In this document: positions 20,031 through 46,682 of the stretch, piece after piece
Numbering within the stretch: the stretch's first letter is position 1
Layout: each line of letters starts with the position of its first letter
IMG/VR virus record: IMGVR_UViG_3300032312_001958
DNA length: 64,000 nt
From: a virus
Lineage: Duplodnaviria > Caudoviricetes
Reading direction: 5' to 3' (one strand)
Made by a program: the position numbers and the translations under genes
The notes under the pieces: model-generated
The model's input: the letters and a program-made list of their open reading frames with translations, nothing else
The model's database searches: none
What the model was told of the DNA's origin: nothing

Positions 20031-20042
20031 ATTTAAATTATT

Positions 20043-20117
20043 TTATAACCACCAAATTGAGGTTTTCCATTCTTCTCTATCAGGATGTTCGTGTACTGAA
20101 AGTTTATCTAAAAATAA
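20043..20117 (-). pseudogene. Start-less coding remnant in frame after a stop codon
   Basis: LFLDKLSVHEHPDREEWKTSIWWL* follows the TAA of the 20118..20726 gene in the same frame. Confidence 0.5.
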
Positions 20118-20726: not shown

Positions 20727-20744
20727 TTTTTAGTATATATTTTT

Positions 20745-21437: not shown

Positions 21438-21451
21438 AAGTCATCAATTAA

Positions 21452-22072: not shown

Positions 22073-22107
22073 ACCATCTTTTTTTTGTTATTTTATTTTT
22101 TTTGATA

Positions 22108-23549: not shown

Positions 23550-23553
23550 ATTT

Positions 23554-25712: not shown

Positions 25713-25713
25713 T

Positions 25714-26487: not shown

Positions 26488-27187
26488 ATTTAGTCTTACT
26501 TCTAATTTTTAGGGCAATATCATTAACTAATGATAAATCTATTTTATGGTCATTTAAAGGATTTGTGTCATTATATATGTAATTTATCTCAGGCATAAAA
26601 TGGTAATGTTCTTCCCCTGACATTTCAAGCATCGGAAACATAAATGATAAATCTCCAGTTACTTTCCAATAATTTCCATTCTCATCTTTTAAATCTTCTT
26701 GTTTTATTTTTCTCCATAAAAACGCTCTCCAAGTTCTCATATGAGTCGCGGTAAATCTTGAGTTTCTTAAATCATTAAAATTCTCTTGTCTTTGTGAAAA
26801 ACCGTTAACTCCATTCGGATATTTAAATGACCCGTTTGCAATCCAAACATTTTCATTTTTATATACATTATTAACTCGCTCAAACACTTTAGAATCGGGT
26901 AACCAATCATCACCATCAACCTCTATTACTATTTCATTATCTCCAATATTTGTATAATTTCTTAAAACATTATCGTAATTACCAGGTTGATATAACTTTG
27001 TTTTATTTTCAATCAGAATAAATCTATCATCATTTTTTATTATTTCTTTTATAATATTAACTGAATTATCCGTAGATAAATCATCAGTAATATAACATTT
27101 AAAATCTTTGAAAGATTGTGACATTATACTAAATAGAGATTTTTGAATATAGTTCTCACAATTGTATACAGTTGTTAATATAACCAT
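26474..27187 (-). CDS. Glycosyltransferase family 2
   Basis: YNCENYI, DDLSTDNS, VDGDDW. Confidence 0.9.
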   Translation of the reverse strand: MVILTTVYNCENYIQKSLFSIMSQSFKDFKCYITDDLSTDNSVNIIKEIIKNDDRFILIENKTKLYQPGNYDNVLRNYTNIGDNEIVIEVDGDDWLPDSKVFERVNNVYKNENVWIANGSFKYPNGVNGFSQRQENFNDLRNSRFTATHMRTWRAFLWRKIKQEDLKDENGNYWKVTGDLSFMFPMLEMSGEEHYHFMPEINYIYNDTNPLNDHKIDLSLVNDIALKIRSKTKYDKL

Positions 27188-27189
27188 AA

Positions 27190-27936
27190 TTAAAAAACTT
27201 TAACTCGTTTATTTAAATAGGATTTGTAATCCTCAATATGTTCATTTTCACTCATTAACACATAAAGGGTTAATCCATTTTTTTTATTAAAATCACTTAG
27301 TCTTTCGGCCCTTAATTTTTGTTTGTATAGATGTAAATTAATACCTAAAAATTTATAATGTAACATTTTTAAATCTTCTCCATTATATATTTTTACTTCA
27401 CCAATTGGGTTACAGGTATGGGCTCCAAAAGAATAATTTATTTCTTTTATTTTATTACAGTCAAACATCATCATTTTATCTAACACAGAAGTTCTGACCC
27501 CATATTTAATTTTTTCTAAAAAGTTATCTTCTGAATTTGGACTATACTCTAAATCTGCGACCATATGAAAACCATTTGGTTTAAACAGAGTAAATCCTTC
27601 GTTTTTAGATTTTATTAAAAAATCATTCATATTTGGATGGTATAGGAACTCATCAGAGTCCCCAATAATTACGTAATCTGCAACACCAACACTATTTTTC
27701 CAAACTTGATTTTTAACTAAAACATGTATTCCATCATTAAATTGATTATTAGTTTCAAAGTTAACGACTTCGACATTATTAAATGATTTGGCAACTAAAA
27801 TGCTATTGTCTGTCGAACCATTATCAACAATTGTTATTTTTTCACAAAATGTTGAGTAGTATTTTATTAAATGAGGTAAAATTTCCTCTTCATTAAAACA
27901 TAAAAAAAATGCGTGTACTATAGGTTTTTTATTCAT
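27190..27936 (-). CDS. Glycosyltransferase family 2-like
   Basis: NEEEIL, DNGSTDNS, DSDEF, LHYK. Confidence 0.85.
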   Translation of the reverse strand: MNKKPIVHAFFLCFNEEEILPHLIKYYSTFCEKITIVDNGSTDNSILVAKSFNNVEVVNFETNNQFNDGIHVLVKNQVWKNSVGVADYVIIGDSDEFLYHPNMNDFLIKSKNEGFTLFKPNGFHMVADLEYSPNSEDNFLEKIKYGVRTSVLDKMMMFDCNKIKEINYSFGAHTCNPIGEVKIYNGEDLKMLHYKFLGINLHLYKQKLRAERLSDFNKKNGLTLYVLMSENEHIEDYKSYLNKRVKVF

Positions 27937-29929
27937 TATTCATTAATTTAATCCATTTATCTAAAATTTCTTTGTTTGTTAGAGTTACATCAGGATTATT
28001 AGTTACTTCATTTCCGTAAAATTTAACACCTGTTAACTCACATTCATCTTTAACTAAAGTTGCAACTTCACTGTTAGATGACAAGTATGCTCTACCTATC
28101 ATATCATATATTTCTTGTTTATTTTCTAAAAATCCTTTTAAAACTACTTTATCACTTAATAATGGTCTAACTTTATTTTCAAAATATTCGGTATTAGGTT
28201 CCCCAAAAAGATAAACTTTTTGACACCCATCAGATAACGCCCTTTCAATTGAAACGTGAGTTTGTTTATTTTCATCAAATGAGCCAATAACTCCAGCAAT
28301 TAATTCTAATCCTTTTTTATCTTTTTTAATTAATTTTTGCTTTAAATTAGGGATTATTGAGTATTCTCCATTATATAAGTTATGGTATTCTCTATGACTA
28401 TCATTCAAAAATACCACTTCGTCCCAAAATTGGGTAATTTTTCCAACTTCAAATAAATCCTTTTCGTGACAAGAAAGTATTACTTTTCTTACATTAGGTC
28501 TTGACGGTAAATTTATAAAATGTGTAATTAATATGTCACTTGTGTCAAGTTTTAAATTATCTAATTTATCTGATTTACATTTATTTAAGTGCCAATCATG
28601 GGGACCATAAAATGTTACATCGTAACCTAATTTATTTAATTCGTTTGTTAGATTAATAAAAGCAACTGTAGAACCACCTCGATTAGACCACCCACTTACA
28701 ATTTTTATTTTTTTTATTTTTGGTCTTGGTACGTTAATCGATAACTCTGGAATTTCTATTTTTTCAATATCAATTGAGTAGTATTTAGATAGACTATCTT
28801 TTATCATCTCATCAAATACTACATATTTAATGACACTTGGGTCAATGACAGGAGTTTCTAAAATTTCTTGAAAATCAGTTATTACAGGTATTAATTCAGT
28901 ATTTTGATAAAGTCTACTAATATGATTGTATACTTCTTTTTTATTAAAAATAATTAAGTCAAAACTAACATCTTTAATTTTATATAATGTATTTGGTTTT
29001 GAAACTTCTTTAACATTTCCTGAATTAAAAATCCATTTCCCGTCCCCAATTCTTAAACCTGGAGGTTCATTAATTGAGGTAAAATTAATCTTATTTCTTA
29101 AAGTTTCCTCTATGGTTTCTGGTTTAATATTTGAAGAAACTGTTATGTTATAATTGTCATTTAGTAATTGATTAACAACTAAATAAAAATACTTTTCAAA
29201 ATCTTTAGACTCAAAAGTGTCAAAACATATAATGGCCCTTAAAATTTCTCCTTTTCTTCTTACTTTTTGTAAAGTTACAGGTAAATTATCTTTATATTTT
29301 TCAGAAAATTGAATTCTGTTTTTTTCCCATTTGTCATTTGTCATTCCAATTGATTTGTGGTTAACCCTAATTAAAGTAGTTACACCATTTTTCACTCCCG
29401 ATATAAAATTTTCAAAACAAAAAGACACGTCATAAAAATGAAACCCCTCAAATTCAATATCAAATTCTTTTTTAATTTTTGTTTTGTCAATACCAAAAAA
29501 TAATCCATCAACAACTATAGTCTCTTCAATAACTTGATTTAAATCAGGTGAATATTCTGATAACCAAGTTTTACCTTCATGGGTATGTAAAACTTTACCA
29601 TACATTTTTGACCTATCTTCCCACCACATACCACTTTGAGGAATGTGTTTAGTACCGGCAACTCCAATAATACCAAATTCAGGGTTTCTTAAAAATAACT
29701 TAACTAATTTTTGTCCCCATTGTTTTGTTTCAACTGTAATATCATCATGACAAAAAACGATAATATCATTTTCTGATTCTTGTAAGATTTCGTTATAAAC
29801 AGTTGTTAAACCCTTTTCACCATTATTAACCTTTTCAATAATTTGAGCCTTAGGAAACCCACAAGATTTTTTAAGATATTCTTGAAATTCAGGGTCACTT
29901 TTTCTTGTACTATATCCAATTGTTATCAT
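27929..29929 (-). CDS. Multidomain glycosyltransferase (GT2-like N-terminus, GT4-like C-terminus)
   Basis: FCHDD, IIGVAG, VDGLF, FHFYD; then RGGST, GSFDENK, LSSNSE. Confidence 0.8.
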   Translation of the reverse strand: MITIGYSTRKSDPEFQEYLKKSCGFPKAQIIEKVNNGEKGLTTVYNEILQESENDIIVFCHDDITVETKQWGQKLVKLFLRNPEFGIIGVAGTKHIPQSGMWWEDRSKMYGKVLHTHEGKTWLSEYSPDLNQVIEETIVVDGLFFGIDKTKIKKEFDIEFEGFHFYDVSFCFENFISGVKNGVTTLIRVNHKSIGMTNDKWEKNRIQFSEKYKDNLPVTLQKVRRKGEILRAIICFDTFESKDFEKYFYLVVNQLLNDNYNITVSSNIKPETIEETLRNKINFTSINEPPGLRIGDGKWIFNSGNVKEVSKPNTLYKIKDVSFDLIIFNKKEVYNHISRLYQNTELIPVITDFQEILETPVIDPSVIKYVVFDEMIKDSLSKYYSIDIEKIEIPELSINVPRPKIKKIKIVSGWSNRGGSTVAFINLTNELNKLGYDVTFYGPHDWHLNKCKSDKLDNLKLDTSDILITHFINLPSRPNVRKVILSCHEKDLFEVGKITQFWDEVVFLNDSHREYHNLYNGEYSIIPNLKQKLIKKDKKGLELIAGVIGSFDENKQTHVSIERALSDGCQKVYLFGEPNTEYFENKVRPLLSDKVVLKGFLENKQEIYDMIGRAYLSSNSEVATLVKDECELTGVKFYGNEVTNNPDVTLTNKEILDKWIKLMNNE

Positions 29930-30525
29930 ATCCCTGTACTCCCAAACCCGTTTTCTCCACGGTCTTTATCATTTATTTTTTCAACCTTAACTAAATTAAC
30001 ATTTCTGCCGGGGTAACATTTTGACAAAACTGCCTGAGCAATTTTCATACCCTTATTTATTTTAAACTGTTCTTTATTTGTGTTAAAAATTATGACCTGA
30101 ACTTCACCAGTATAACCCTCGTCAACAGTTCCAGGACTATTAAGTACCATTAGACCTTGTTTAAGTGCCAAGCCACTTTTAGACCTTACTTGAATCTCAA
30201 AACCTTCAGGAATTTCAAATCTAATTCCGGTAGGTACCAAAGACCTACCAAATCCTTCTATCAAAATATCCTGAGTTGAATATAAATCAAATCCACTATC
30301 TGAAATGTAATTATAATTTAAATCTAAATTAGACTCAGAAGAATACGACAAATCAACTTTATTCATTGATTCTGCCATATGATTTTCAAAATCTTTTAAG
30401 TCAATACCATAATCATCATAAATCTGTTTATATAAATTTATATCTGATTCTTTATCTAAAGAATCTTGAATTTTTTTCATTTCTTTATACAAATCAAAAT
30501 CCTCGTCGTTAATATCTAAACTCAT
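29926..30525 (-). CDS. dut: dUTPase (trimeric)
   Basis: SGFDL, RSKSGLA, PGTVDEGYTGE, RGENGFGSTG. Confidence 0.96.
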   Translation of the reverse strand: MSLDINDEDFDLYKEMKKIQDSLDKESDINLYKQIYDDYGIDLKDFENHMAESMNKVDLSYSSESNLDLNYNYISDSGFDLYSTQDILIEGFGRSLVPTGIRFEIPEGFEIQVRSKSGLALKQGLMVLNSPGTVDEGYTGEVQVIIFNTNKEQFKINKGMKIAQAVLSKCYPGRNVNLVKVEKINDKDRGENGFGSTGI

Positions 30526-31223
30526 TTTAAATTTTTAATTTTTTTAACAACATTTATTAATACCTCAACGTCTTTTTCACAATAATCTTGTATTTCTTGG
30601 TATTTGTTTTCATTCCAAAAATAATAATGTACTTTATTTCCGGTCACTTCCATATTTTTAGAAGATTCGACCCCTAAAGAAATGCACATTAATTCTAAAG
30701 AACTAATTGCTCCAAATTGACCAAACTGCCAAATATCTTTAGTGTCAACCGCTTTAATTTCCCATGGCTTAGTATCGGGAGTTGGTAAAATTGATGATGG
30801 TAATATACCATTAATAATCATTCTTTTACCTAACACAGGAATATCAAAATTTTTGATGTTATGACCACAAAGTACAAACCCTAATTTGTCAACACGATTT
30901 AATAGTGTGTTTACATCCTTCAATAGTTGAGTTTCATCTGAATTAAAAAAAGTTTGTTTTTTAATTGTGTCATCAGGTCCTACAAATCCTACTGAAACAC
31001 AAATTATTTTACAAAATTCAGGTACTAAAGCAGCTCGGTTAACAAATATATCTTCTTTTGATTTATCTGAATCTTCAGTAAATCTTTTTTGAAACCAATC
31101 TAAATAATTATCAAATTGATAACAAAGAGACGGGTAGTCTCTTTTGAAAGTATCGTAATTACTTGAAACCCCGACAGTCTCAATATCTATAAATAATAGT
31201 TTGTTTAATGGGTACTGTATCAT
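30522..31223 (-). CDS. Stand-alone PolB-type 3'-5' exonuclease
   Basis: FIDIET, GHNIKNFDIP, YCEKDV (DEDDy). Confidence 0.88.
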   Translation of the reverse strand: MIQYPLNKLLFIDIETVGVSSNYDTFKRDYPSLCYQFDNYLDWFQKRFTEDSDKSKEDIFVNRAALVPEFCKIICVSVGFVGPDDTIKKQTFFNSDETQLLKDVNTLLNRVDKLGFVLCGHNIKNFDIPVLGKRMIINGILPSSILPTPDTKPWEIKAVDTKDIWQFGQFGAISSLELMCISLGVESSKNMEVTGNKVHYYFWNENKYQEIQDYCEKDVEVLINVVKKIKNLK

Positions 31224-31226
31224 AAA

Positions 31227-32444
31227 TTATTTTAATAAACTGAAATAAAGTTCTTTTCTATCTTTTGTTACGTTATTTAAATCGTATGTTTTTGAAACTG
31301 TCTCGTATAATCTTTCACCTAAATCAACAATCATATTTGGATTATCGACTAATTTTTTGATGTGTTTTGACCAATCAGAATGGTTACGAGTCTCTTCAAC
31401 CAATAAAGCATTACCGTCAACAAATTCACCATTTTTAAGAGCGTGTTTTAAATCAATTGTGTAAGGACCAATATTAGATGCGATTAAAGCTTTCTTATAG
31501 AACCCTGCTTCAATAACCTTCAACTGTGACTTAACTCTATTAAAAATATGGTTTTTAATTGGCGCTAAAGATATATCAAATTTAGAATAATTCTTAGCAT
31601 AAGATGTTGTTGGTAAGGTCCAAACTCTTCTATAACCCTCATTTAATTCGTTGAAGTAAGACTCATCTTTGAATTTCATAAGATGTGTTTTATACTCATC
31701 ACCTACAGTCTTATAATTGTTTGTGAAAATTTCTTCATATTTCACCCAAACTGTTTCGTCAGGTCTAATAGGTCTGACTTTTTTCTCACCTGTGTCTTTA
31801 TTATACTCGGTCATACTACCACGTGTGTCAAATCCGCACAAGACATATTGAATTTTATCATTTAAACTACCTAATTTACTTACCATTCCGTCTAAAAGAT
31901 ATAAGTCATGTAAGTGAGATGAACCTCCAAGCCACCCAACTCTGATTCTGTCCGATTCTAAAGTTTTTTCTTTAAACTGTGGTTCATTAGGGTCAATTGC
32001 GTTTGGTAATACTGAAACATTTTTATTTACTTTAGATACCTCAGATGCAAATACTGAAGTAGTTGTTGTTACATGTTTTGCAGCTCTTATCTGAGCAATA
32101 ATTTTCTCATTTATTTTTTCTTGAAGAATAATAGTGTGTAGAGGATGTTCTTTTGTTGGTAACCAATAGTCGTCAATGTCACAAATAGTTACCACACCTT
32201 GTTTATTAAGTTTTTCAATCAACTCAACTGATTTTTCATAATCTTGACCAATTAGTCTATGAAAATGTACTATATCGTACTTTTGCCAAAATTTATCATC
32301 ATCGTAATTAATATCAAATTCTATATCTACATGAACTTCATTTGGATACAATTTTTGAAGACATACGTGAGGGTCAATCGACCTAAATTTACCTACACCA
32401 CTTCTATCTGAAGGTAATACTAAAATATTAATTTTTTTACTCAT
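31227..32444 (-). CDS. Glycosyltransferase, GT4-like
   Basis: DIDDYW, GWLGGSSH, DISLAP, KSQLKVIEAG. ATG at 32444 preferred. Confidence 0.82.
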   Translation of the reverse strand: MSKKINILVLPSDRSGVGKFRSIDPHVCLQKLYPNEVHVDIEFDINYDDDKFWQKYDIVHFHRLIGQDYEKSVELIEKLNKQGVVTICDIDDYWLPTKEHPLHTIILQEKINEKIIAQIRAAKHVTTTTSVFASEVSKVNKNVSVLPNAIDPNEPQFKEKTLESDRIRVGWLGGSSHLHDLYLLDGMVSKLGSLNDKIQYVLCGFDTRGSMTEYNKDTGEKKVRPIRPDETVWVKYEEIFTNNYKTVGDEYKTHLMKFKDESYFNELNEGYRRVWTLPTTSYAKNYSKFDISLAPIKNHIFNRVKSQLKVIEAGFYKKALIASNIGPYTIDLKHALKNGEFVDGNALLVEETRNHSDWSKHIKKLVDNPNMIVDLGERLYETVSKTYDLNNVTKDRKELYFSLLK

Positions 32445-32451
32445 AGAAACA

Positions 32452-32480
32452 ATTATAGTTATTAAACTATAACATTTCAA
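32452..32480 (-). promoter_or_regulatory. Sigma70-like promoter heading the glyco/nucleotide operon
   Basis: TTGAAA-N17-TATAAT, 7 nt before the ATG at 32444. Confidence 0.6.
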
Positions 32481-35165: not shown

Positions 35166-38126
35166 ATGAGTCAACAGAATATTAATCAATATGTCTTTAA
35201 CAAATGGAAATTAAACCCAAGTTGGAATAATTTGGATATGTCATTGGCGTCCGATGAAACAGATTTTAATGAGGAAGTTGTTTTTTCAACTCAATTAATT
35301 GGAATAAATAATGGTAATAGATTACCAATTTATTTTGATTTAAATAATTCAAATTCGTCCCAAAAACCTACCCTTAATTATGGGGACTATCTTACAGGTA
35401 ATACTTTAGTATCATTAAATTATTATAATCCAAATAATGAAAATTTATCTTGTTTTACAGGTGATAGTTTATGTGATATAGGTTTAACAGGTATTGATAA
35501 TGGATTAGTTCCTGAAATGTCAGGTGAGACAATATATTTTAGTATGGGGTTATATACAGGTACCACAAAATGGGACAGGTATCACTTTGACAGAAGGACT
35601 AAATTAATACCAATAAAATCGTATACTACAAATACTAATCGTTTTTCAGGTAATACAAAAGAAACAATTTATAATATTGTATCAAAAACTGGTGATACAA
35701 CAGGAGTTTATAATCAACTATATGGTGGGTTTAACCAAGGATTTTTTAAATTATTTGGATATGATTATGAAACATTTCCAAATAGATGTAATAAAGGATG
35801 GTCAGTTGAGATGTTACTACGAGCAAGACAGGAGGACCAGTTTTACCCAACATCTGCAGAAACCACATTAAATTTAACATATTCAGGTAACGAAAATACC
35901 TTTTTTTATTTGGGGACAAGAGCTGAAAATAAATTCTATCATCACGCGTCTGGGTCACCTGAATCTGATTCAGGGTACACAAGAGTTACTGAAGTATTAT
36001 CAGAATGTTTAAAAACATGTGCTTGTTCAAACTCTGGAGTAACAAACTCAAGATGTTTAGATGATATATATGAACCATTAGTTTATACTTCACAACATAA
36101 TGTAAATTGTAATTGTGGATGTTCGGAAAATGTAGTTGTAAATCCGGATAAAGACCCATTACTTGACTCAATGTCAAATACATTTTCATTAAGACTATCA
36201 GGTGACACTAAAAATCCGATAGTCTGTGTGAAAGTTTTAAAATTTACAGGAGGTTGCGAGACTACAGGTAGTTGTGAAACAACAGGTATAACATATACCA
36301 CGGGATACACAATAAGTGAGTATTGTTCAACTAATAGGATATTTGAATATTGTGCTAGTAGTACTGATTATATCAACAAAGAACATTGGTTTTTAATTGA
36401 TTGTGTTTGGGAAAGAAACTCGTATTTTGACACTTGTGATTTATTATATCGTGGAGGTTTAGATTCAATAACAAATACATATTATGTAAACTCTTTAGCC
36501 GGTAATTCTGTTAGTTTAATTACCGTACCATATACCCAATCAGGAGCAACTCCGGCAGAACAAGTTGAGATTGTTAATCTAAATGAGGAATGGTTAATTG
36601 AGAAGGATTATAGGCTAGGGTCTTTAAAAATATATGTTAATGGTCGATTGTTTTATGTAATTAATGGATTTGAAGAAGTAATACCTCGAGGTTTAAATAC
36701 TGAAAAAGAAAAACAAATTGGGGTTCCATTTAATATTTCATGGGGAGGGGGAACACAAGGATTGAGAGAAAGTTTAACGTTTAAATCTTGTTCACCTAGT
36801 GATTTTATTTCAGGATTATATGTTAATGACTTTAACACCATTCTTGGAAATAGTAATGAAGAAAATTTGTTAAAGTCATTTGTTGATACCCATAATTTTA
36901 ATACGGTATATTATTATGATTTAACTGGAATTTTAGATAATAATATACAAATAGATAACTTAAAAAGTTTTAACACGTCAATCAGATTATCCGGAGTAAC
37001 GACAATTGGAGGTATTGGGGGTAGTTACCAAACATTAGCGGGTTCGGGGACGACAGGTAATAATTCAAGATTATATTATAATACGGGATGTACTGAAGAT
37101 AGTCAGAAATTTGATGTGTTAAATTTGGAAAATGAGTTTTGGAATTATAACAATCCTGGAACTGTTGATTTCGCAACTTACTATGGATATTTACAATCAG
37201 TAAATTCATCAACAACATTAACTTTTGATTCATATATTGGTCAAATTGATGACCCAACTTCAGCTTATACCCCAACACAAATTGCATCTAATTTAGTTTC
37301 AGAATTAGATAGAATATTGGTCGCATGTTACATTACAACTAATCAATTCACAGGGTCAACTAACTATGGGTTGAATACAGTTGATGAGGAATTAATACTA
37401 ATTGGTGACGCCGCTATAAGTCAAAATAAAGTTCAGGATGTGATTATTATATTCCATGGAGGTAATTCATACATGTATAATTATTTTAATGAATTTGGTT
37501 TCCAAGAAGCGTTCAATAATTTCAAAGAATCGTATGACAACTGGAATAACTCTTCCAAATTAGGTATTAATCTTAAAGGGTATTTTATTTATGGTTATCA
37601 ACAAGTTAAGAATATTACACAAGTAAGTTCAGGGTCAAGTATTGGTTATTTTGAATATCAACAAGACCCTGAATGTATGCCAAATCAAACATTATCTGGA
37701 ACATCATTGTCCGCATTAACGACTAACATATATATTGAACCTCAATTTGGGGGGTCATTTGATGGCGCAATTTCACAATTTAGAATGTATACCGAACCAT
37801 TAACATACCCTGAAGTAGTTCATAATTTTGACATACTTAAAGGTCAATGGGAATTGTTTGACTATAAATGTCCTAGTTGTTCTGATATTGTAATTAATGA
37901 TATAATCGGAACTCAATCCGGTACGGATATTATTTTTAGTTCAGAGTTTTTCTCAGGAAATACATTTAATTTATATTATTACAAAGATTCGGGAGAACCA
38001 AGATATGTTGTTACTGAAAATGAAACTTTTCCGTATACCATGGACACAACTTTGGTCCCAAATTGCTGTGGTAATAATTTTTATTTTTATATTATAGAAT
38101 TAGACCAAACATTCCTTTACACATAA
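35166..38126 (+). CDS. Large virion protein, LamG/concanavalin-like fold with an inserted domain
   Basis: GWSVEMLL, LKIYVNG, FDGAISQFRMY (LamG-like elements), Cys-rich patches, late motif upstream. Confidence 0.6.
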   Translation: MSQQNINQYVFNKWKLNPSWNNLDMSLASDETDFNEEVVFSTQLIGINNGNRLPIYFDLNNSNSSQKPTLNYGDYLTGNTLVSLNYYNPNNENLSCFTGDSLCDIGLTGIDNGLVPEMSGETIYFSMGLYTGTTKWDRYHFDRRTKLIPIKSYTTNTNRFSGNTKETIYNIVSKTGDTTGVYNQLYGGFNQGFFKLFGYDYETFPNRCNKGWSVEMLLRARQEDQFYPTSAETTLNLTYSGNENTFFYLGTRAENKFYHHASGSPESDSGYTRVTEVLSECLKTCACSNSGVTNSRCLDDIYEPLVYTSQHNVNCNCGCSENVVVNPDKDPLLDSMSNTFSLRLSGDTKNPIVCVKVLKFTGGCETTGSCETTGITYTTGYTISEYCSTNRIFEYCASSTDYINKEHWFLIDCVWERNSYFDTCDLLYRGGLDSITNTYYVNSLAGNSVSLITVPYTQSGATPAEQVEIVNLNEEWLIEKDYRLGSLKIYVNGRLFYVINGFEEVIPRGLNTEKEKQIGVPFNISWGGGTQGLRESLTFKSCSPSDFISGLYVNDFNTILGNSNEENLLKSFVDTHNFNTVYYYDLTGILDNNIQIDNLKSFNTSIRLSGVTTIGGIGGSYQTLAGSGTTGNNSRLYYNTGCTEDSQKFDVLNLENEFWNYNNPGTVDFATYYGYLQSVNSSTTLTFDSYIGQIDDPTSAYTPTQIASNLVSELDRILVACYITTNQFTGSTNYGLNTVDEELILIGDAAISQNKVQDVIIIFHGGNSYMYNYFNEFGFQEAFNNFKESYDNWNNSSKLGINLKGYFIYGYQQVKNITQVSSGSSIGYFEYQQDPECMPNQTLSGTSLSALTTNIYIEPQFGGSFDGAISQFRMYTEPLTYPEVVHNFDILKGQWELFDYKCPSCSDIVINDIIGTQSGTDIIFSSEFFSGNTFNLYYYKDSGEPRYVVTENETFPYTMDTTLVPNCCGNNFYFYIIELDQTFLYT

Positions 38127-38161
38127 TTTAATTGTAGTATTTTTTGGATAAAAATATTAAT

Positions 38162-39406
38162 ATGAAAATTTTTATCCAAATTGCGTCTTATCGAGACCCA
38201 CAATTAATACCAACAATTAAGTCCGCATTAGAAAATGCTAAACATCCTGAAAATTTAGTTTTTGCAATCGCAAGACAATTTTACCATGAAGATGGGTTTG
38301 ATAATTTAGACGAATACAGAAATGATGATAGATTTAGAATTTTAGATATACCTTATGAGGAATCAAAAGGTGCATGTTGGGCTAGAAATCAAATACAACA
38401 ACTTTATCAAAAAGAAGAGTACACTCTTCAAATAGATTCTCATATGAGATTTGCGGAAAATTGGGATGTTGAAATGATTGGGATGATTAAACAATTACAA
38501 AAGAAAGGACATAAAAAACCTTTATTAACAGGATACGTACCATCCTTTGACCCTGATGATGACCCTAACTCAAGAGTAATGGAACCATGGAGAATGGTAT
38601 TTGATAGGTTTATACCTGAAGGTGCTGTGTTTTTCTTACCTGAGGTAATACCTGGATGGCAAAATATGACAGAACCAGTACCTGCAAGATTTTATTCTGC
38701 ACATTATTGTTTTACTTTAGGTAAATTTTCAAAAGAAGTTCAACACGACCCTGAATTTTATTTTCATGGGGAAGAAATATCAATTGCCGCTAGAGCTTAT
38801 ACCCATGGATATGATTTATTTCATATCCATAAAATTTTAATTTGGCATGAATATACAAGAAAGGGTAGAACTAAACAATGGGATGATGATAAAGATTGGG
38901 TGAGTAAAAATGATTATTGTCACAAGAAAAATAGGAGTTTATTTGGGATGGATGGTGAAGAACCAATGAACCATGGAAAGTATGGATTTGGTAAAAAAAG
39001 AAGTTTAAAAGACTATGAAAAATATTCAGGATTACTTTTTTCCAAACGAGCCATCCAACAATGGACAATAGATAAAAACTATCCTCCTAATCCGTATAAT
39101 TTTAATACTGAAGAAGAATGGATGAATTCGTTCTCATCAATATTTAAACATTGTATTGATTTACAATATTCACAAGTACCTGAAAAAGATTACGATTTTT
39201 GGGTTGTTGCATTTCATGATGAAAATGATGAAACACTCTTTAGAAAAGATGCCGATAAATCTGAAATTAATCGTATGATGAATGACCCAGATGGTTACGT
39301 TAAAGTATGGAGAGAATTCAATATGGTTAAACAACCAAAATATTGGGTAGTTTGGCCTCATTCTGAATCAAAGGATTGGTGTGAAAGAATATCAGGTAAT
39401 TTATAA
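38162..39406 (+). CDS. GT60/Gnt1-like polypeptide GlcNAc-transferase
   Basis: IFIQIASYRD, SKGACWAR, LQIDSHMRF..NWD, FHGEE...RAYTHGYD. ATG at 38162 preferred. Confidence 0.82.
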   Translation: MKIFIQIASYRDPQLIPTIKSALENAKHPENLVFAIARQFYHEDGFDNLDEYRNDDRFRILDIPYEESKGACWARNQIQQLYQKEEYTLQIDSHMRFAENWDVEMIGMIKQLQKKGHKKPLLTGYVPSFDPDDDPNSRVMEPWRMVFDRFIPEGAVFFLPEVIPGWQNMTEPVPARFYSAHYCFTLGKFSKEVQHDPEFYFHGEEISIAARAYTHGYDLFHIHKILIWHEYTRKGRTKQWDDDKDWVSKNDYCHKKNRSLFGMDGEEPMNHGKYGFGKKRSLKDYEKYSGLLFSKRAIQQWTIDKNYPPNPYNFNTEEEWMNSFSSIFKHCIDLQYSQVPEKDYDFWVVAFHDENDETLFRKDADKSEINRMMNDPDGYVKVWREFNMVKQPKYWVVWPHSESKDWCERISGNL

Positions 39407-39409
39407 AAA

Positions 39410-39481
39410 ATGAATAAAGTTATAAAGTACTGGAATAAGGATTTAGTTTCCCAACATATTACTGACAAAATAAATTTTTAA
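39410..39481 (+). pseudogene. 23-aa mini-ORF or collapsed gene
   Basis: MNKVIKYWNKDLVSQHITDKINF* fills the intergenic gap with operon-like spacing. Confidence 0.4.
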
Positions 39482-39492
39482 TACTTAAAATT

Positions 39493-40131
39493 ATGAAAAA
39501 AATAATTAGTTTTTCTTTATACGGTAATGACCCAAAGTATACTTTTGGGGCTTTATGTAATGCTGAATTAAGAAAAGAAATTTATCCTGATTGGATTTGT
39601 AGATTTTATTGTGGAACAAGTGTTCCTCAAGAAATAATAGAAAATCTTTTAAATTATAGTAATACTGAAGTAATTATGATGGACGAGACTCAAAAATATT
39701 CATTTAGAATGTGGAGATATTTACCAATGATTGATAAAGAAGTATCTATATTTTTATCTAGAGACGCCGATTCAAGACTATCATTCAGAGAAAAAAAATG
39801 TGTCGATATTTTTATAGAATCGGATAGTTTAATACATTCAATACAGGATAATTTTAATCACCCTGATTTTATGGCAGGTATGTGGGCAATGAAAAAAAGT
39901 ATTGATATTGACCTAATTAGACTATTTGAGGAGTGGGGAGAAGAAAAAACCTACGACTCTGACCAACTTTTTTTAAGAGAGAAAATTGTACCTTTATTTG
40001 GTGATAAAAAATTAATTCATTGCTCAACATTTGATAAAACATTCCCAAATGTTGATGAAACTAATCATTTTGTAGGTGAGGTTTTTCCTTGGGATAATCA
40101 TGGTAGACCTAAAAATTATATTTTTTATTGA
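39493..40131 (+). CDS. Putative GT-A glycosyltransferase-like protein
   Basis: IISFSLYG, MWRYLP, SRDADSR (DxD), AGMW, DQLFL. Confidence 0.6.
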   Translation: MKKIISFSLYGNDPKYTFGALCNAELRKEIYPDWICRFYCGTSVPQEIIENLLNYSNTEVIMMDETQKYSFRMWRYLPMIDKEVSIFLSRDADSRLSFREKKCVDIFIESDSLIHSIQDNFNHPDFMAGMWAMKKSIDIDLIRLFEEWGEEKTYDSDQLFLREKIVPLFGDKKLIHCSTFDKTFPNVDETNHFVGEVFPWDNHGRPKNYIFY

Positions 40132-41024
40132 TGAAGTTATTAATACAGCACAATTTTATAACAGGGTTAGGTGATATGTACGTATCGGTTACCCAATATT
40201 TAGAATTTGCAAATGAATATAAAAATAAAGGATATGAAACTGAGCTTGTAGTTTGTTTTAGAGAAAACAAATATATTGATATGATTGATTTTTCAGAAAT
40301 ATTTGATATGGAATATTTTAGTGTTTTTGATAAAATTTCATATGTGAAAAAACCAATTTTAAAAAAGAAATATGAAGAGTTAACTTATGTGTTTACCGCC
40401 AATTTAACAGTCGACCCAAAACCAGGACAGCAAGATTGGGACGTATTTTTATCAGAATCAAACGAAAAATTAATAATACCAAATTCAACAACTTACAGAT
40501 TATTAGTCGATAATAATCAACCAAAAATTAAACCAAAATTTTCTAAAGACATTATTAACAAATCAGATATAATCTCCCGACAAATAGGTGATGATTACAA
40601 TTATTTACAAATTAGAATGAATGATGAAAAAAGACTAACAAAAGATGACTATAAAATGTTAGAGTTATTTCATAATAAAATTATTCAAACTAATGAGGTT
40701 TTTCATATAGGTTCAAATAGTCACGAAGTTTTAAATTTCTTTAACAATAAAAAAAATGTTTTTACATATGGATTTAAATCTAGTTGTGAATTTGATAGTA
40801 ATCACAATTATTTTGGTCACACTAATTTAACAAATGAGGAGTATATACAAAGATTAAAAGACAACATTGTTGAAATGGTTAGTATAAAAAACGCTAAAAA
40901 AATTTATCAATACTCTGAAATTTTTTGGATTTCACAATTTTTGTTTTACTCATTTGTTGAGAACATAGGAAATATAAATTTTTATAGAGTTAATAATCAA
41001 TTTGAAACAATAAGTTATATTTAA
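40128..41024 (+). CDS. Putative fucosyltransferase-like (GT-B) protein
   Basis: TGLGD and QIRMND resemble the GLGn/HvR.gD motifs. Confidence 0.45.
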   Translation: MMKLLIQHNFITGLGDMYVSVTQYLEFANEYKNKGYETELVVCFRENKYIDMIDFSEIFDMEYFSVFDKISYVKKPILKKKYEELTYVFTANLTVDPKPGQQDWDVFLSESNEKLIIPNSTTYRLLVDNNQPKIKPKFSKDIINKSDIISRQIGDDYNYLQIRMNDEKRLTKDDYKMLELFHNKIIQTNEVFHIGSNSHEVLNFFNNKKNVFTYGFKSSCEFDSNHNYFGHTNLTNEEYIQRLKDNIVEMVSIKNAKKIYQYSEIFWISQFLFYSFVENIGNINFYRVNNQFETISYI

Positions 41025-41064
41025 AAATCATCATTATTTAATATATTAATAAAAAACTATAAAC

Positions 41065-41436
41065 ATGGAATACCCAATAAGTGAAATTTTAGATAGATAT
41101 TCTATCGCTATTTTAAAAAAAGAAAGATTAGATATTGATAATCAAAAAGAAATTAATGATTTAAAAGTTGTTATAGAATCTTATAAAGATGAGAATTTTG
41201 AATTTATTGAATCCTATATAACTAAATTAATAGATATAAATGGAAAAATATGGGATTTAGAATCGGATATTAGAAAAGGTAAAGAAGGAGTGTTAGGATT
41301 AGAAGAAGTTGGTAGAAGAGCAATTCTTATTCGAGAAAATAATAAAATAAGAGTTGGATATAAAAACGAAATTGTTGAATATTTTGGAGTTGGTTATTTA
41401 GACATAAAAATGAATCACGTTAGTTCCAATGGATAA
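41065..41436 (+). CDS. DUF6165-like helical protein
   Basis: ISEILDRYSI...IWDLESDIR...N..R...KN.I; paralog of 60552..60935. Confidence 0.55.
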   Translation: MEYPISEILDRYSIAILKKERLDIDNQKEINDLKVVIESYKDENFEFIESYITKLIDINGKIWDLESDIRKGKEGVLGLEEVGRRAILIRENNKIRVGYKNEIVEYFGVGYLDIKMNHVSSNG

Positions 41437-43018
41437 GATAGTTATAACCCTTACAACCGTACCCCAAAGACTTTCTTACAATGTCGATGATGGATTTAAA
41501 TTGGTTTTAAAATCACTTTGTGAACAAAACCATGAAAATTATGAGGTTCATTTAAATTTACCGTATTTTTATAATGTTACAGATGAAGAGTATATTATAC
41601 CTGATTGGTTAAATGAATATAGTCAAAAATACAGTCATTTTAAAATTTTTAGAACTCCCGATTATGGACCCCCAACTAAAGTTGTCCCAACAATAAAGAG
41701 AGAAAGTAAAAATACTTTAATGATTATTGTTGATGATGATTTAATTTATCATCCAGACATGATTAACGAACATTTAAAATATCATGACTTGCTTGACGAC
41801 TCAGTAATTTTATATGACGGTAGAAGTTTAGTTTATCCTAAATTTGGTGATTTAAGAGATGCTTGGGTTTTAACTGTAAATGAAATATTAAGAGTTAAAG
41901 AATTACAACATTATAAATCCGCGTCATATTTTGTCAAATATTTTGAGGATGATTTTTTCAGAGATTTTGTTGGTCATACTAAATCAGATGATGTTTTAAT
42001 GTCTTATTATTTTAGATATAAAGATATACCAATGTATGTTGTTCCTTATGAAGAAGAAGCAAAATTAATATTTGATTACGATAGTTGGCATAAAACTCAA
42101 CGGGTTGAAACTTTTCCAGTAATTAGACCCTCAAATAGTTTAATGGACACTGGATGTAATCACCCTGATATATTAAAAAATGAACCAAAATTTTTTATAC
42201 CTGATAGTTTTAAACATGTGGACCAAAAACCATTTATCAGTAAACATGAAAATATTATAGGTACAAATAATAAAAAAACTATTGAAGTACCGATTCAAAA
42301 TAGAACACTAAATAACAAATTAGAAATCCATAGAGTTAGAGATTTAATTTTAAAAATTAGCGAAGATTTTAATAAGATTGATAAGAAATTTTGGGACACA
42401 ATTCATTTAACAGGTGAAGAACACGATTTCCAAAGAAGTAAGCCCGCTCCTTACATAAAAAAAACTTGTGAGATTGGAAAAATTTTAGGATTAAAAACTG
42501 TGGTTGAAATTGGTGCAACTAGACATGGAATAACTCCTAATTGTGTTAATTATTTTTACAATTCTAATAATCCATTTGTATCACCTACATGTTGTGCGGA
42601 TGGTCACGGAGGAATATTTTTCTCATTAGAAGGATTTGAAACTTACTCAGTTGATATTGATGAAAATTGTGAGACACATATTAGATGGTCATACGAATCT
42701 ATTGGTAGGGAAATCCCAAGTAACCTAAATTTATTCATACCTAAAGACGGGATAGAATTTTTAAATGAATTTGAAGGTAATATTGATATTTTATTTCTTG
42801 ATGGTTGGGATGTTGGTACTCATGAATATGCTGAAAATCATTTAAAGGCATTTGAAGTCTCTAAAGAAAAGTTATCCGATATTCATTTAATTTTAATTGA
42901 TGATACTGATTTTACAATGAGTGAGGGTAAAGATGTTTTATTGTCACCACATTTAATATCATTAGGTTACACTTTATTATTCGATGGTAGACAAAAACTT
43001 TATATAAATAAAATTTGA
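41429..43018 (+). CDS. Glycosyltransferase-methyltransferase fusion
   Basis: N-terminal TLTTVPQR, DYGPPTK, VDDD, SDD; C-terminal VEIGA, LFLDGWD, LIDD. Confidence 0.7.
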   Translation: MDKIVITLTTVPQRLSYNVDDGFKLVLKSLCEQNHENYEVHLNLPYFYNVTDEEYIIPDWLNEYSQKYSHFKIFRTPDYGPPTKVVPTIKRESKNTLMIIVDDDLIYHPDMINEHLKYHDLLDDSVILYDGRSLVYPKFGDLRDAWVLTVNEILRVKELQHYKSASYFVKYFEDDFFRDFVGHTKSDDVLMSYYFRYKDIPMYVVPYEEEAKLIFDYDSWHKTQRVETFPVIRPSNSLMDTGCNHPDILKNEPKFFIPDSFKHVDQKPFISKHENIIGTNNKKTIEVPIQNRTLNNKLEIHRVRDLILKISEDFNKIDKKFWDTIHLTGEEHDFQRSKPAPYIKKTCEIGKILGLKTVVEIGATRHGITPNCVNYFYNSNNPFVSPTCCADGHGGIFFSLEGFETYSVDIDENCETHIRWSYESIGREIPSNLNLFIPKDGIEFLNEFEGNIDILFLDGWDVGTHEYAENHLKAFEVSKEKLSDIHLILIDDTDFTMSEGKDVLLSPHLISLGYTLLFDGRQKLYINKI

Positions 43019-43019
43019 T

Positions 43020-44699
43020 ATGGATAGTAATATTACTTTAGTAACAGGACTTTGGGATTTAAAAAGAGAAGAACTAAGTGAAGGATGGGCTAGGTCTTTC
43101 GAGAACCATTATCTTGAAAAATTTAAACAACTTTTAACAGTAAAAAATAATTTAATTATTTTTGGAGATTCAGAACTTGAAAAGTTTGTGTGGGAATTTA
43201 GGTCACATGAAAATACCCAATTTATTAATCGAGATTTAATTTGGTTTAAAAATGAATTTTACGATAAGATACAGTTAATAAGAAATAACCCAAATTGGTA
43301 TAATCAATCAGGTTGGTTATCTGAATCCACTCAAGCAAAATTGGACATGTATAACCCATTGGTGATGTCTAAAATTTTTTTACTTAATGACGCAAGAATT
43401 TTAGATAAATTTGAATCTGAAAAATTATTTTGGATAGATGCAGGTATAAGTAATACTGTTCACATTGGGTACTTCACACATGATAATGTTTTAGAAAAAT
43501 TAGATAAAAAAATTACAAAATTTTCTTTTGTTTGTTTTCCATATAATGCGGAAAATGAAATTCATGGATTTTCATACCCAATGATAAACAATTGGGCGGA
43601 AGACGATGTTAAATTAGTGGGTAGAGGAGGTTTTTTTGGAGGACCAAAAAAAACAATTGGTGAAATAAATTCAATATATTATGGATTATTATCTGACACT
43701 CTAAACCAAGGGTATATGGGGACTGAAGAATCTATTTTTTCAATCATGGTTTATAAATACCCTAATTTAATAGATTATTTTGAAATTGAAGGTAATGGAT
43801 TATTAAGTACGTTTTTTGAAAACGCTAAAAATGAAACTTTAGAAGTTAAAAATCAAAAAAAGACAAATCAAAAAAATAGTTTTGATATTGATAAAACTTC
43901 ATTATATGTAATTGGATTTAACAGTCCTAATCAATTAGAAACTTTAATTAAATCAATGATTTCTTATGATGAGGATTTTATAAATAAACCAAAAAAATAC
44001 TTGTTAAATAATTCAACAGATAGAAGTACAGATGAAAAATATGTTGAAATTTGTAATCTACACAATTTTGAAATTATTTGGTCTAAAGAAAATCTTGGTA
44101 TATGTGGAGGTAGACAATTTATTGCCGAACATTTTGATAAAAGTGAAAATGATTATATGTTTTTCTTTGAGGATGATATGTTTTTCTACCCTAAAGAGGG
44201 TGAAGTTTGTAGAAATGGATTTAACAGATATGTTAAAAATTTATATCAAAAATCTTTAAACATAATTAAAAATTATAATTTTGATTTTTTAAAATTGAAT
44301 TATAGTGAGTTTTTTGGGGATAACGGAACACAGTGGAGTTGGTATAACGTACCTCAATCTTTTAGAGAACAACATTGGTCTGAAAAATCAAAATTACCTG
44401 AATTTGGTACTGACCCTAATTCTCCTAAAACTAAGTTCACTTCAATAACTTCATATGATGGTGTACCTGTTGCAACAGGTGAAATATTTTATTGTAATTG
44501 GCCTCAAGTAGTGTCAAAAAACGGAAACGTAAAAATGTTTTTAGAAACAACTTGGGCTCATCCTTATGAACAAACATGGATGAGTCATATGTTTCAAGAA
44601 ACAATTAAAGGTAATTTAAATCCTGGTTTGTTATTACTGACACCAACAGAACACAATCGTTTTGAACATTACGACGGAAAACTAAGGAAAGAAAGTTAA
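43020..44699 (+). CDS. HtrL/YibB(WlaTC)-like domain fused to a GT2-like domain
   Basis: TLVTGLWD, WIDAG, GGFFGG; then NLGICGGRQ, FFEDD. Confidence 0.7.
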   Translation: MDSNITLVTGLWDLKREELSEGWARSFENHYLEKFKQLLTVKNNLIIFGDSELEKFVWEFRSHENTQFINRDLIWFKNEFYDKIQLIRNNPNWYNQSGWLSESTQAKLDMYNPLVMSKIFLLNDARILDKFESEKLFWIDAGISNTVHIGYFTHDNVLEKLDKKITKFSFVCFPYNAENEIHGFSYPMINNWAEDDVKLVGRGGFFGGPKKTIGEINSIYYGLLSDTLNQGYMGTEESIFSIMVYKYPNLIDYFEIEGNGLLSTFFENAKNETLEVKNQKKTNQKNSFDIDKTSLYVIGFNSPNQLETLIKSMISYDEDFINKPKKYLLNNSTDRSTDEKYVEICNLHNFEIIWSKENLGICGGRQFIAEHFDKSENDYMFFFEDDMFFYPKEGEVCRNGFNRYVKNLYQKSLNIIKNYNFDFLKLNYSEFFGDNGTQWSWYNVPQSFREQHWSEKSKLPEFGTDPNSPKTKFTSITSYDGVPVATGEIFYCNWPQVVSKNGNVKMFLETTWAHPYEQTWMSHMFQETIKGNLNPGLLLLTPTEHNRFEHYDGKLRKES

Positions 44700-44726
44700 T
44701 CTGTATATTTATTGTAAAAACAATAA

Positions 44727-45095
44727 ATGGAATTTTATATTGGTCAAAATAGTAATTTACCTATTTTAAAGATGCAAGTCATTAAAGACGGTAAACATGA
44801 TATTGATTCAATGTTAGAACTTTTAGAAGAATCTGTTTTATATTTCTCAATGAAGGATATTAAAAATGGAAACTATAAAATATTAAATTCTTCAGCTGGT
44901 TTTGTCGAAAAAATTTTTTTAGAACCAAATTCTGATGTTGAGTATTATCTTTATTATAAATTTTCAAAAAGTGACACCTCTAAATCAGGAAGATTTGAAG
45001 GTGAGTTTTTATTAAAGTCTGAGAATGGAACACTTTTATTGCCAATAAGAGATAAATTATTCATAAACGTTACCGAATCAACAATTATCACTTAA
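44727..45095 (+). CDS. Small virion adaptor-type (BppU-like) protein
   Basis: MEFYI...LP.Lk...Y.F...DT...G.fegEF...LP; late motif upstream. Confidence 0.55.
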   Translation: MEFYIGQNSNLPILKMQVIKDGKHDIDSMLELLEESVLYFSMKDIKNGNYKILNSSAGFVEKIFLEPNSDVEYYLYYKFSKSDTSKSGRFEGEFLLKSENGTLLLPIRDKLFINVTESTIIT

Positions 45096-46648
45096 TGGAA
45101 TTTTTCATAAAAAAAAATGCAACTTTACCATTATTAAAGTTTGAAGTATTTCAAGATGGTAGAAGTGATTTTAATAATTTACAAAATCTGAGTGGGACAT
45201 CATCAAGTTATTTGACTTTAATTGACCCAACAAATTCTGAAATAAAATTTGCTAGTAGACCGTGTTCGATTGTAACCGGACAATCAGAGTACGACGAATC
45301 AAAAATAATTTATTTTGTTCAGTATCAATTTAAAAATACTGAAACAAAAAAATTAGGTAGATATGAAATAGAACTTTCAATGATTGATACAAATGGTACA
45401 GTTATTTTACCATTAAGGGATAAAGTTTTTGTTAATATAATTGATAGTTTTTCAATAGACGGATTTTCATTCCCAAACAATTATGAAGTTGATTATCCGT
45501 GTTGTGAAGGGGCTCAACCTAACCCGACTCCGGCAAATTCACCAACACCATCTATTTCTTCTACACTCACACCAACAAAAACAAAAACACCGACACCAAC
45601 ACCGACACCTAATCAGTCATCTTCGGTAACACCTACACCAACCACTACCCCAACTGTAACACCTACAATTTCAGTAAGTCCAACAATAACTAAAACACCT
45701 ACAAATACACCGACTCAAACTACAACAACTACGACAACAATAACTCCGACTAATACCGTCACACCAACAATAACTCCAACTAATAGTCAGACACCTGCAG
45801 TTAGTCCATCGGTAACACCAACAAAAAGTATTACACCAACAAAAACAAAAACACCAACTGTTACACCAACAAACTCATTAACACCAACTATTACACCAAC
45901 TACTACAATAACACCAACTGTGAGTCCTTCATATATTCCTCCGTCAATTATTGTAAATTCGGTTGATAATGATGGAGTTGTATATTCTTACAATTTTGGA
46001 ACAGGTGTTGTTACTAATGTAACTCCTCCTCAAAATTCATCTATTACTAGTAAAAGTTGGATTGGAAAATACAATAACATTTGGTGGACATTTGACGGAT
46101 ATTCAACTTTATACAGACAAGATGGATTGTCTAATGCTCCTGTAAATAAACCAACTGGTGCACTTACAGACCCAGGTATATGTGTATTAGATTCTAATAA
46201 TGTATTATTTGTAAGAACACCTATGTCAGGTCCTAATAGAAATATAATTTTAGGTCCATATGTAAGTTTATCATTTAGTTATATATTTTGTGGAAGTCTA
46301 CCTGTGAATAGATTTGCCACAGGAGGTATGATAAAAACAACGACAAATAAGTTAATAATAATAACAACTAATTTTTCAAATACATCAGTTTATTTGAATC
46401 AATACCCATACGTAAATAACACTACTTCAGTGTTAACAAGTGAAGTTGAAGTTAATTTAACAAATATTATATCAAACCCTAGAGGAATATTTGTTGCAAG
46501 TAATCAATTTTATATTGTAAATGCGTCAGGAGAAATCTACCAGATTCAAAAAACATCACCGTACACTGTCAGTTATGTTACGTCTATCGGAAGAACGGTT
46601 AAAGGAATTGCTCAAGACTCAACAAATTGGAATGTAAATTTTAGTTAA
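45095..46648 (+). CDS. Virion appendage protein: adaptor domain, mucin-like Thr/Pro stalk, beta-rich head
   Basis: N-terminus paralogous to 44727..45095, about 140 aa of TPT repeats, propeller-like C-terminus. Confidence 0.65.
   Translation: MEFFIKKNATLPLLKFEVFQDGRSDFNNLQNLSGTSSSYLTLIDPTNSEIKFASRPCSIVTGQSEYDESKIIYFVQYQFKNTETKKLGRYEIELSMIDTNGTVILPLRDKVFVNIIDSFSIDGFSFPNNYEVDYPCCEGAQPNPTPANSPTPSISSTLTPTKTKTPTPTPTPNQSSSVTPTPTTTPTVTPTISVSPTITKTPTNTPTQTTTTTTTITPTNTVTPTITPTNSQTPAVSPSVTPTKSITPTKTKTPTVTPTNSLTPTITPTTTITPTVSPSYIPPSIIVNSVDNDGVVYSYNFGTGVVTNVTPPQNSSITSKSWIGKYNNIWWTFDGYSTLYRQDGLSNAPVNKPTGALTDPGICVLDSNNVLFVRTPMSGPNRNIILGPYVSLSFSYIFCGSLPVNRFATGGMIKTTTNKLIIITTNFSNTSVYLNQYPYVNNTTSVLTSEVEVNLTNIISNPRGIFVASNQFYIVNASGEIYQIQKTSPYTVSYVTSIGRTVKGIAQDSTNWNVNFS
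45518..45940 (+). repeat. Low-complexity Thr/Pro/Ser coding repeat (ACACCAAC-type)
   Basis: Repeats of TPTKTK, TPTVTPT and TPTITPT. Confidence 0.9.
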
Positions 46649-46682
46649 TTGTTAAAAACAATGTAATTATATATAAAAGATT

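Follow-up and report, generated by a model that had tools for sequence, protein, structure and literature searches.

The characterised members of glycosyltransferase family 60 (GT60) are polypeptide α-N-acetylglucosaminyltransferases (α-GlcNAc-transferases), and to our knowledge they have been characterised only in protists. The Golgi enzymes of Trypanosoma cruzi and Dictyostelium start O-glycans on threonine-rich, mucin-like tracts. Virus-encoded glycosylation of the virion occurs in the mycobacteriophages Che8, Corndog and Myrna and on the capsid of chlorovirus PBCV-1, where soluble, virus-encoded glycosyltransferases act in the host cytoplasm on structural proteins of the virus itself and produce glycans that vary between strains. 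These systems use other enzyme families and have capsid or tail-tube acceptors, with atypical N-glycans in PBCV-1, and we know of none in which a GT60 initiator or a mucin-like tract has been described. Only a few systems of phage-encoded protein glycosylation are known to us. Here we describe a gene block at positions 38162-46648 of a 64,000-nucleotide stretch of phage DNA (IMG/VR record IMGVR_UViG_3300032312_001958), hereafter the window. The block encodes a GT60 enzyme, further transferase-like proteins and a fibre-like protein with a Thr/Pro-rich stalk, and we put at roughly 65% the probability that, as its sequence suggests, it is a cytoplasmic, stepwise protein O-glycosylation system for Thr/Pro tracts of phage proteins.

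The proposed initiating enzyme is encoded at 38162..39406 (+). From its ATG start, the open reading frame (ORF) gives 414 residues, the same length as all close homologues, and it matches Pfam family PF11397 ('GlcNAc') with an E-value of 4.4e-65 and 220.9 bits (cut-off 21), over profile positions 92-349 and an N-terminal stretch. It also matches phrog_24687 (E 1.8e-172). The motifs IASYRD and IDSHMRF are both present, and the metal-binding DxH motif of the GT-A fold (D92-S93-H94) is invariant in the alignment of phage homologues, down to 51% identity. An earlier note on this DNA had called the enzyme GT60-like and staked its argument on that likeness beforehand; with 221 bits to PF11397 and an invariant DSH the likeness stands, and judged from its sequence the assignment of the product to PF11397/GT60 is solid. 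There are more than 7400 metagenomic homologues, and PF11397 is annotated on all 120 of those listed. A sequence search of the PDB with this enzyme returned no chain at E-values up to 1. The protein contains no hydrophobic segment and is accordingly predicted to be soluble.

The protist GT60 enzymes (Dictyostelium Gnt1 and Golgi polypeptide α-GlcNAc-transferase, and the T. cruzi mucin polypeptide α-GlcNAc-transferase) belong to the same PF11397 family and keep the DxH motif, and the chemistry of the Golgi enzymes is the one we propose for the phage, though there are differences. The phage enzyme is soluble, lacks a signal anchor and would work in the bacterial cytoplasm, with a predicted donor and acceptor. 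It also carries a C-terminal extension of ~110 residues, here called the long form, that tracks with the presence of a second enzyme, g559, and of Thr/Pro-rich neighbours. The animal GT27 GalNAc-transferases are likewise retaining GT-A enzymes with a DxH motif that act on disordered Thr/Pro-rich tracts and have an extra C-terminal domain, but they form a different CAZy family, and the extension of the phage GT60 is not an established lectin.

The conserved partner, g559 (43020..44699, +), is a fusion. Its N-terminal half matches HtrL_YibB (PF09612; E 6.2e-16, 59 bits, cut-off 24), whereas the C-terminal half is weakly GT2-like. Against TIGR02192 it scores 62 bits (E 6e-17), far under the equivalog cut-off of 265, and hence g559 is a member of the HtrL/YibB family rather than an orthologue of Escherichia coli YibB. 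No PDB chain was found for it by sequence search.

A GT60 at 70-95% identity is encoded on 135 IMG/VR stretches, and we compared synteny in 80 of these loci. Gene order is conserved: g986 comes first, then GT60, a variable middle, g559, a g122-type gene and a polymerase. The GT60 and g559 pair occurs in more than 100 related contigs of lake phages. While g559 is present in nearly all related loci, the middle genes of the window, g212, g298, g123 and g529, are found in only a few. A co-oriented Thr/Pro-rich ORF lies within 10 kb in 39 of 47 non-redundant loci; such an ORF ends no more than 3 kb upstream of GT60 in 21 of 38 loci and starts no more than 3 kb downstream of g559 in 21 of 34. Some of the relatives' Thr/Pro tracts exceed 1000 residues. 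A clustering of Thr/Pro-rich genes solely next to GT60 was considered and discarded, as complete relatives carry them at many places in the genome.

The same arrangement is found in a second set of phages, the Xanthomonas and Stenotrophomonas jumbo phages XacN1, Xoo-sp13 and RAS14. Their GT60 enzymes are 45-48% identical to that of the window, their full-length g559 homologues are 39-42% identical, and a carbamoyltransferase and other genes lie between the two. The GT60 tree places these three phages apart from the lake-phage clade. The closest described counterpart, XacN1 ORF334-ORF330, has the same co-oriented GT60 (48%) and full-length g559 homologue (42%) around a variable middle, in a genome rich in Thr-Pro-Thr (TPT), but in its middle the carbamoyltransferase and two unknown ORFs take the place of g212, g298, g123 and g529, and its GT60 is of the separate lineage. 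By gene order, GT60 and g559 form a conserved core around a swappable middle in two phage lineages. The TPT-bearing ORFs of XacN1 adjoin baseplate and sheath genes, and its virions show at least two glycoprotein bands by Schiff (PAS) staining (PMC5852040). The XacN1 authors (Yoshikawa et al. 2018) suggested that the phage's glycosyltransferases act on virion proteins, nothing further, and drew no link between ORF334 and GT60, Thr/Pro tracts or ORF330 (PMC5852040). In our literature search, no publication connected GT60/PF11397 with phages or with Thr/Pro-rich proteins of bacteria.

The pair also occurs in bacteria. In a scan of bacterial genomes, g559 comes immediately after a long-form GT60 in Saprospiraceae, Lewinellaceae, Cytophagales, Gemmatimonadota and Verrucomicrobiota. 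Twelve loci, from Bacteroidota, Gemmatimonadota, Verrucomicrobiota and Pseudomonadota and with GC contents of 0.33-0.70, combine long-form GT60, g559 and a Thr/Pro-rich ORF of 230-590 residues, which lies directly upstream of GT60 in 11 and just past g559 in one. The two genomic contexts checked, in Jiulongibacter and a Saprospiraceae, are ordinary chromosome. All four of the bacterial Thr/Pro-rich proteins that were read have N-termini resembling twin-arginine signals, which fits modification before export, and one has a C-terminal type IX secretion system (T9SS) sorting domain. Short-form GT60s, from SAR86, Cupriavidus and others, have no C-terminal extension, no g559 partner and no Thr/Pro-rich neighbour. 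Bacterial GT60 sequences from Saprospiraceae, Lewinellaceae and Bacteroidia (L213, L214, L216, L218 and L220) nest within the lake-phage clade with support of 99/95. This nesting suggests gene exchange between phage and bacterium, and it hints that the hosts are Saprospiraceae-like Bacteroidota.

Some bacterial loci have further features. In Jiulongibacter sediminis (L226, 5942-13145) there are two GT60 paralogues, a short one of 306 residues and a long one of 420. The locus also encodes the Thr/Pro-rich protein, an HtrL/GT2 protein to which an FkbM methyltransferase is fused and, like XacN1, a carbamoyltransferase, and these genes adjoin a UDP-glucose dehydrogenase and an epimerase. The Thr/Pro-rich GT60 neighbour of a Gemmatimonadaceae locus (L227, 7212-7952) has an N-terminal segment that by eye resembles a PqqD-type peptide-recognition domain, before an RR motif and the tract. 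In a Saprospiraceae locus (L214, 4349-6424, -), a 691-residue sulfotransferase-domain protein adjoins the Thr/Pro-rich protein of the module, and sulfated glycans are a possibility there.

We analysed co-occurrence in 15 phage genomes, 33 viral records selected for their tracts and 38 bacterial loci. All seven GT60-positive phage genomes (five lake phages, XacN1 and RAS14) contain 13-103 strand-specific matches to the pattern TPTxTPT, compared with 0-1 for the reversed-pattern control, and none of the eight GT60-negative relatives contains any. In the reverse test, PF11397 was found in 15 of the 33 viral records picked solely for a long TPT tract. A GT60 enzyme is encoded by only 4 of 50,697 cultured phage records. 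The earlier note had predicted that GT60 would co-occur with genes for Pro/Thr repeats, and this is borne out both by the contrast between positive and negative genomes and by the 39 of 47 loci described above. This phylogenetic profile is stronger evidence than adjacency.

The candidate acceptor in the window is g517 (45095..46648, +), a 517-residue, fibre-like protein that consists of an N-terminal β-sandwich, a Pro-Cys-Cys (PCC) motif, a Thr/Pro tract and a C-terminal β-propeller. The ~140-residue Thr/Pro stalk noticed earlier at ~45518-45940 (roughly residues 140-290) is confirmed, with proline, threonine and serine making up at least 65% of 40-residue windows over ORF residues 150-303. 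Its DNA is degenerate and has no clean tandem repeat, and its length differs by indels among eight g517 homologues. In the AlphaFold2 model, the predicted local distance difference test (pLDDT) score is 70-80 for the N-terminal domain, below 50 for residues 120-278 (~30 in the tract, which is predicted to be disordered) and 80-90 for the propeller. The propeller resembles generic propellers (Foldseek E 2e-6, VIA Z ~13); the receptor-binding protein of the staphylococcal phage phi11 (5efv) is among the matches, with a Z of 13.1 that ties with unrelated propellers. Propeller matches filled both fold-search lists, in which the fold of the N-terminal domain was not placed. The head domain of g517 has only eight homologues.

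Preceding g517 is g122 (44727..45095, +), a stand-alone version of the Ig-like β-sandwich 'attachment' domain. The two are tandem paralogues, g122 being 35% identical to the first 120 residues of g517 (E 5e-26). Searches of Pfam, PHROG and NCBIfam gave no match for g122; the neighbours of the g122/g517 N-terminal domain in a language-model atlas include a cluster with 12% BppU_N members, which is a lead only. A g122-type domain is syntenic after g559 in most relatives, and its 42 distinct versions have a terminal PCC motif; many stop exactly there, and about half continue into Thr/Pro or poly-Thr tails. The motif stands at the end of the domain in the window (45500-45510) as in loci L007-L077, and the tails beyond it often contain a further CxxC.

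Between GT60 and g559 lies the variable cassette. The product of g212 (39493..40131, +) has no Pfam, NCBIfam or PHROG match, but it belongs to a glycosyltransferase-associated family with 4218 representative homologues, in which its domain is fused to GT2, GT10, GT41/TPR or GT1-like (EryCIII-like) domains. It is found in only some related loci. A PDB match of g212 to CroV588 (E 1e-10) was discarded as an artefact of many weak leucine-rich repeat matches summed together. The next gene, g298 (40131..41024, +), has only seven sequence homologues, and searches of Pfam, PHROG, NCBIfam and PDB sequences were empty. Its AlphaFold2 model (pLDDT 79, predicted template modelling (TM) score 0.78) most closely matches NodZ in Foldseek (3siw; E 3.4e-5, probability 1.00, TM score 0.51), followed by FUT8 and POFUT2, and g298 is thus predicted to have the fold of a GT23/GT65/GT68-type (NodZ/FUT8-like) fucosyltransferase. 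The small helical protein g123 (41065..41436, +) is not transferase-like and has no significant Pfam, PHROG or NCBIfam match; it occurs together with g529 in five related loci (L040, L044, L046, L069 and L071). The N-terminal half of g529 (41429..43018, +) is a putative GT-A domain, GT2/KfiA-like by weak matches to Glycos_transf_2 (E 3.8e-4, below the Pfam cut-off) and KfiA (5z8b; E 0.0026), and its C-terminal half matches phrog_24975 (E 4e-11). By eye, the C-terminal half was taken to be of Methyltransf_24 type, an identification we rejected after BLASTP against the Methyltransf_24 protein of the window gave an E-value of only 0.05; the domain may still be methyltransferase-like. The earlier description of four transferase-like genes after GT60 thus applies to g212, g298, g529 and g559, all of them predicted to be soluble, and its count of two fusions is correct because g529 and g559 each have two-domain matches.

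A second glycan gene cluster lies upstream on the opposite strand (19053..32480, -), interrupted by genes for a dUTPase and a PolB-type exonuclease. It encodes a GDP-mannose 4,6-dehydratase (E 7e-116), a GT11 protein of the fucosyltransferase family (E 2e-33), four GT2-type proteins, a phrog_7162 glycosyltransferase, FkbM and Methyltransf_24 methyltransferases and an amine-oxidase-like flavoprotein. The cluster showed no GDP-fucose synthase. It probably feeds or extends the same glycans as the GT60 block. All enzymes of both clusters lack a hydrophobic or membrane-like segment and are predicted to be soluble, and the ORFs scanned in the window yielded no lipid-carrier initiating transferase, flippase or polymerase.

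The analysis establishes family membership, the content of the gene block, predicted solubility, synteny and co-occurrence; from these we infer, in the mechanism that follows, which acceptor and sugar are used, in what order the enzymes act, where in the virion the product lies and what it is for. During infection, the soluble GT60 would move the first sugar from a UDP-sugar to the hydroxyls of Thr (or Ser) in disordered Thr/Pro tracts, the acceptor in the window being the stalk of the 517-residue protein. By analogy with its family, this sugar would be an α-linked N-acetylhexosamine, most likely GlcNAc. The two-domain partner g559 would add the next sugar or sugars, after which a strain-specific glycan would be built up by the swappable g212, g298, g123 and g529 and by the upstream cluster of GDP-sugar, glycosyltransferase and methyltransferase genes. 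Once modified, the proteins would enter assembly or be released, as mucin-like stalks. That such stalks serve for stiffening, shielding or adhesion is speculation. Soluble, sequential, cytoplasmic O-glycosylation of Thr/Pro tracts is the most economical reading of these data.

Several points weigh against this mechanism. The case for glycosylation in this phage or its clade is a comparative one, and the stained bands of XacN1 are unassigned to particular proteins or enzymes (PMC5852040). The assignment of g517 as a fibre-like virion protein is likewise a prediction, its location being suggested by architecture alone. The full 517-residue protein is confined to the closest relatives, and what is conserved beside the enzymes is the family of its N-terminal domain. 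In complete relatives, Thr/Pro tracts are scattered genome-wide, so adjacency within phage genomes is only moderately informative. Thr/Pro tracts are ordinary flexible linkers, and of the ten near-complete viral records selected for long TPT tracts, seven lack PF11397; taken with the counts of 7/7 and 0/8, this means that the presence of GT60 predicts tracts, whereas the presence of tracts does not predict GT60. Finally, the co-occurrence counts represent few independent lineages. The proposal of the earlier note, that the phage glycosylates its own T/P-rich appendage, therefore stands in part: GT60 membership and tract co-occurrence speak for it, whereas the restriction of the 517-residue protein to closest relatives and the occurrence of tracts without GT60 do not.

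Two alternatives deserve consideration, both of which we regard as improbable. According to the first, the enzymes make or alter a glycan that is not on a phage protein, either a host surface polysaccharide or lipopolysaccharide (LPS), for superinfection exclusion or receptor masking, or a free glycan, and the tracts are plain linkers. The family description of HtrL/YibB places it in the LPS core locus of E. coli, O-antigen clusters typically contain GDP-mannose 4,6-dehydratase, GT11 and FkbM genes, and tracts also occur in phages that have no GT60. However, none of the lipid-carrier and membrane functions searched for was found in the window, the family precedent for GT60 is a protein acceptor, and in the compact bacterial module the partner of GT60 and g559 is a single secreted Thr/Pro-rich protein and not a polysaccharide locus.

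The second alternative, to which we give no better odds, is that GT60 glycosylates protein elsewhere than the tract: a folded g122-type domain, the capsid or sheath, hydroxyproline or a host protein. Such a target would agree with the g122-type domain being the most consistently conserved feature beside g559, many copies of which have no Thr/Pro tail, and Dictyostelium Gnt1, itself a GT60 enzyme, acts on a hydroxyproline of a folded protein. Yet the bacterial neighbours share the Thr/Pro tract and mostly not the g122-type domain, and across lineages the profile tracks TPT tracts. The prolyl-4-hydroxylase-type domain PF13640 is absent from four of five GT60-positive phage genomes, although one genome (G002) carries PF13640 oxygenases, and Thr/Ser is thus a likelier acceptor than hydroxyproline.

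Glycosylation of phage DNA bases as a defence against restriction, as in T4 and other hypermodifying phages, is very improbable: the block abuts a DNA polymerase, dUTPase/dCTP-deaminase-like and exonuclease genes lie inside the upstream cluster, and DNA hypermodification by phage GT-A and GT-B enzymes is documented (10.1101/2023.12.21.572611), but we found neither a hydroxymethylase gene nor a TET-like or thymidylate-synthase-like one in the window, GT60/PF11397 goes unmentioned in the phage DNA-glycosylation literature examined, that study included, the bacterial GT60/g559 pair adjoins a secreted protein, and the fucosyltransferase fold, GT11, GDP-mannose 4,6-dehydratase and sugar methyltransferases are more indicative of a complex glycan than of a modified base. 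No rival fits the bacterial three-gene module as well as tract glycosylation.

If glycosylation of Thr/Pro tracts is correct, the locus may belong to a portable, prokaryotic mucin-type module. This module would have three parts, a Thr/Pro-tract acceptor, a long-form GT60 initiator and a two-domain HtrL/GT2 extender with a swappable tailoring cassette; it would act in the cytoplasm, before virion assembly in phages or twin-arginine export in bacteria, would have moved between lake jumbo phages and Saprospiraceae-type Bacteroidota, and would decorate many fibre-like phage proteins with strain-specific glycans. We consider this reading as a whole to be evenly balanced between true and false. Were it true, a large and abundant group of freshwater jumbo phages, some phages of plant pathogens and several bacterial phyla would make mucin-like glycoproteins by means of a eukaryote-type initiator, which bears on protease resistance and host recognition by phage fibres, on the variation of glycan cassettes between near-identical phages and on the origin of mucin-type glycosylation.

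The source of the window is an uncultured freshwater jumbo myophage, distantly T4-like, because the cultured relatives nearest to it by capsid protein (an uncultured 484-kb phage, Microcystis phage Mel-JY01 and Flavobacterium phage immuto) share just 41-43% identity and megablast of the block against cultured phages gave no DNA-level match. Related IMG/VR contigs reach 321 kb and have terminal repeats. The window has a GC content of ~30% and encodes a gp23-type major capsid protein of 609 residues (2645-4474, +), a tail sheath protein of 1059 residues, a family-B DNA polymerase, a helicase and PhoH. Matches to gp23-type proteins span only ~55-63% of the capsid protein, in two pieces, so it contains a large insertion or extra domain. 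The earlier label of a T4-like phage is right as to the gp23-type capsid, but as a distant jumbo phage it is no typical member of the T4-like group.

From 35166 to 49901, every long ORF is on the + strand with gaps of 0-90 nt, in agreement with the co-oriented, tightly packed block described earlier. Its placement inside structural genes was only partly right: the capsid gene is 30 kb and the sheath gene 9 kb away, and the adjoining genes are g986 upstream and DNA polymerase B downstream. At the head of the block, g986 (35166..38126, +; 986 residues) is unannotated, with no match in Pfam, PHROG or NCBIfam, and the same searches were without match for g107. Upstream of GT60 in related loci, g986 is syntenic at 48-85% identity, and its homologues in three of them (L008, L010 and L026) have TPT tracts of 200-400 residues after a CxxC motif.

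The motif TATAAATA, which we take to be the T4 late-promoter core, lies 26 nt ahead of the ATG of g986 and 10 nt ahead of g559, and it is found 10-40 nt upstream of several starts (motif positions 35133, 43003, 5649, 7244, 10678(-) and 51368(-)). There are 25 matches in the window compared with 16.6 expected, a number reached in 2 of 100 shuffles. Its position ahead of g986 and g559 hints at T4-style late expression of the block, the enrichment being only mild. Scans for sigma-70 promoters and terminators stayed at shuffle level. Downstream of the block, the phage encodes an Fe/Mn superoxide dismutase (51380-52165, -), with matches to Sod_Fe_C (E 8e-40) and Sod_Fe_N (E 9e-22).

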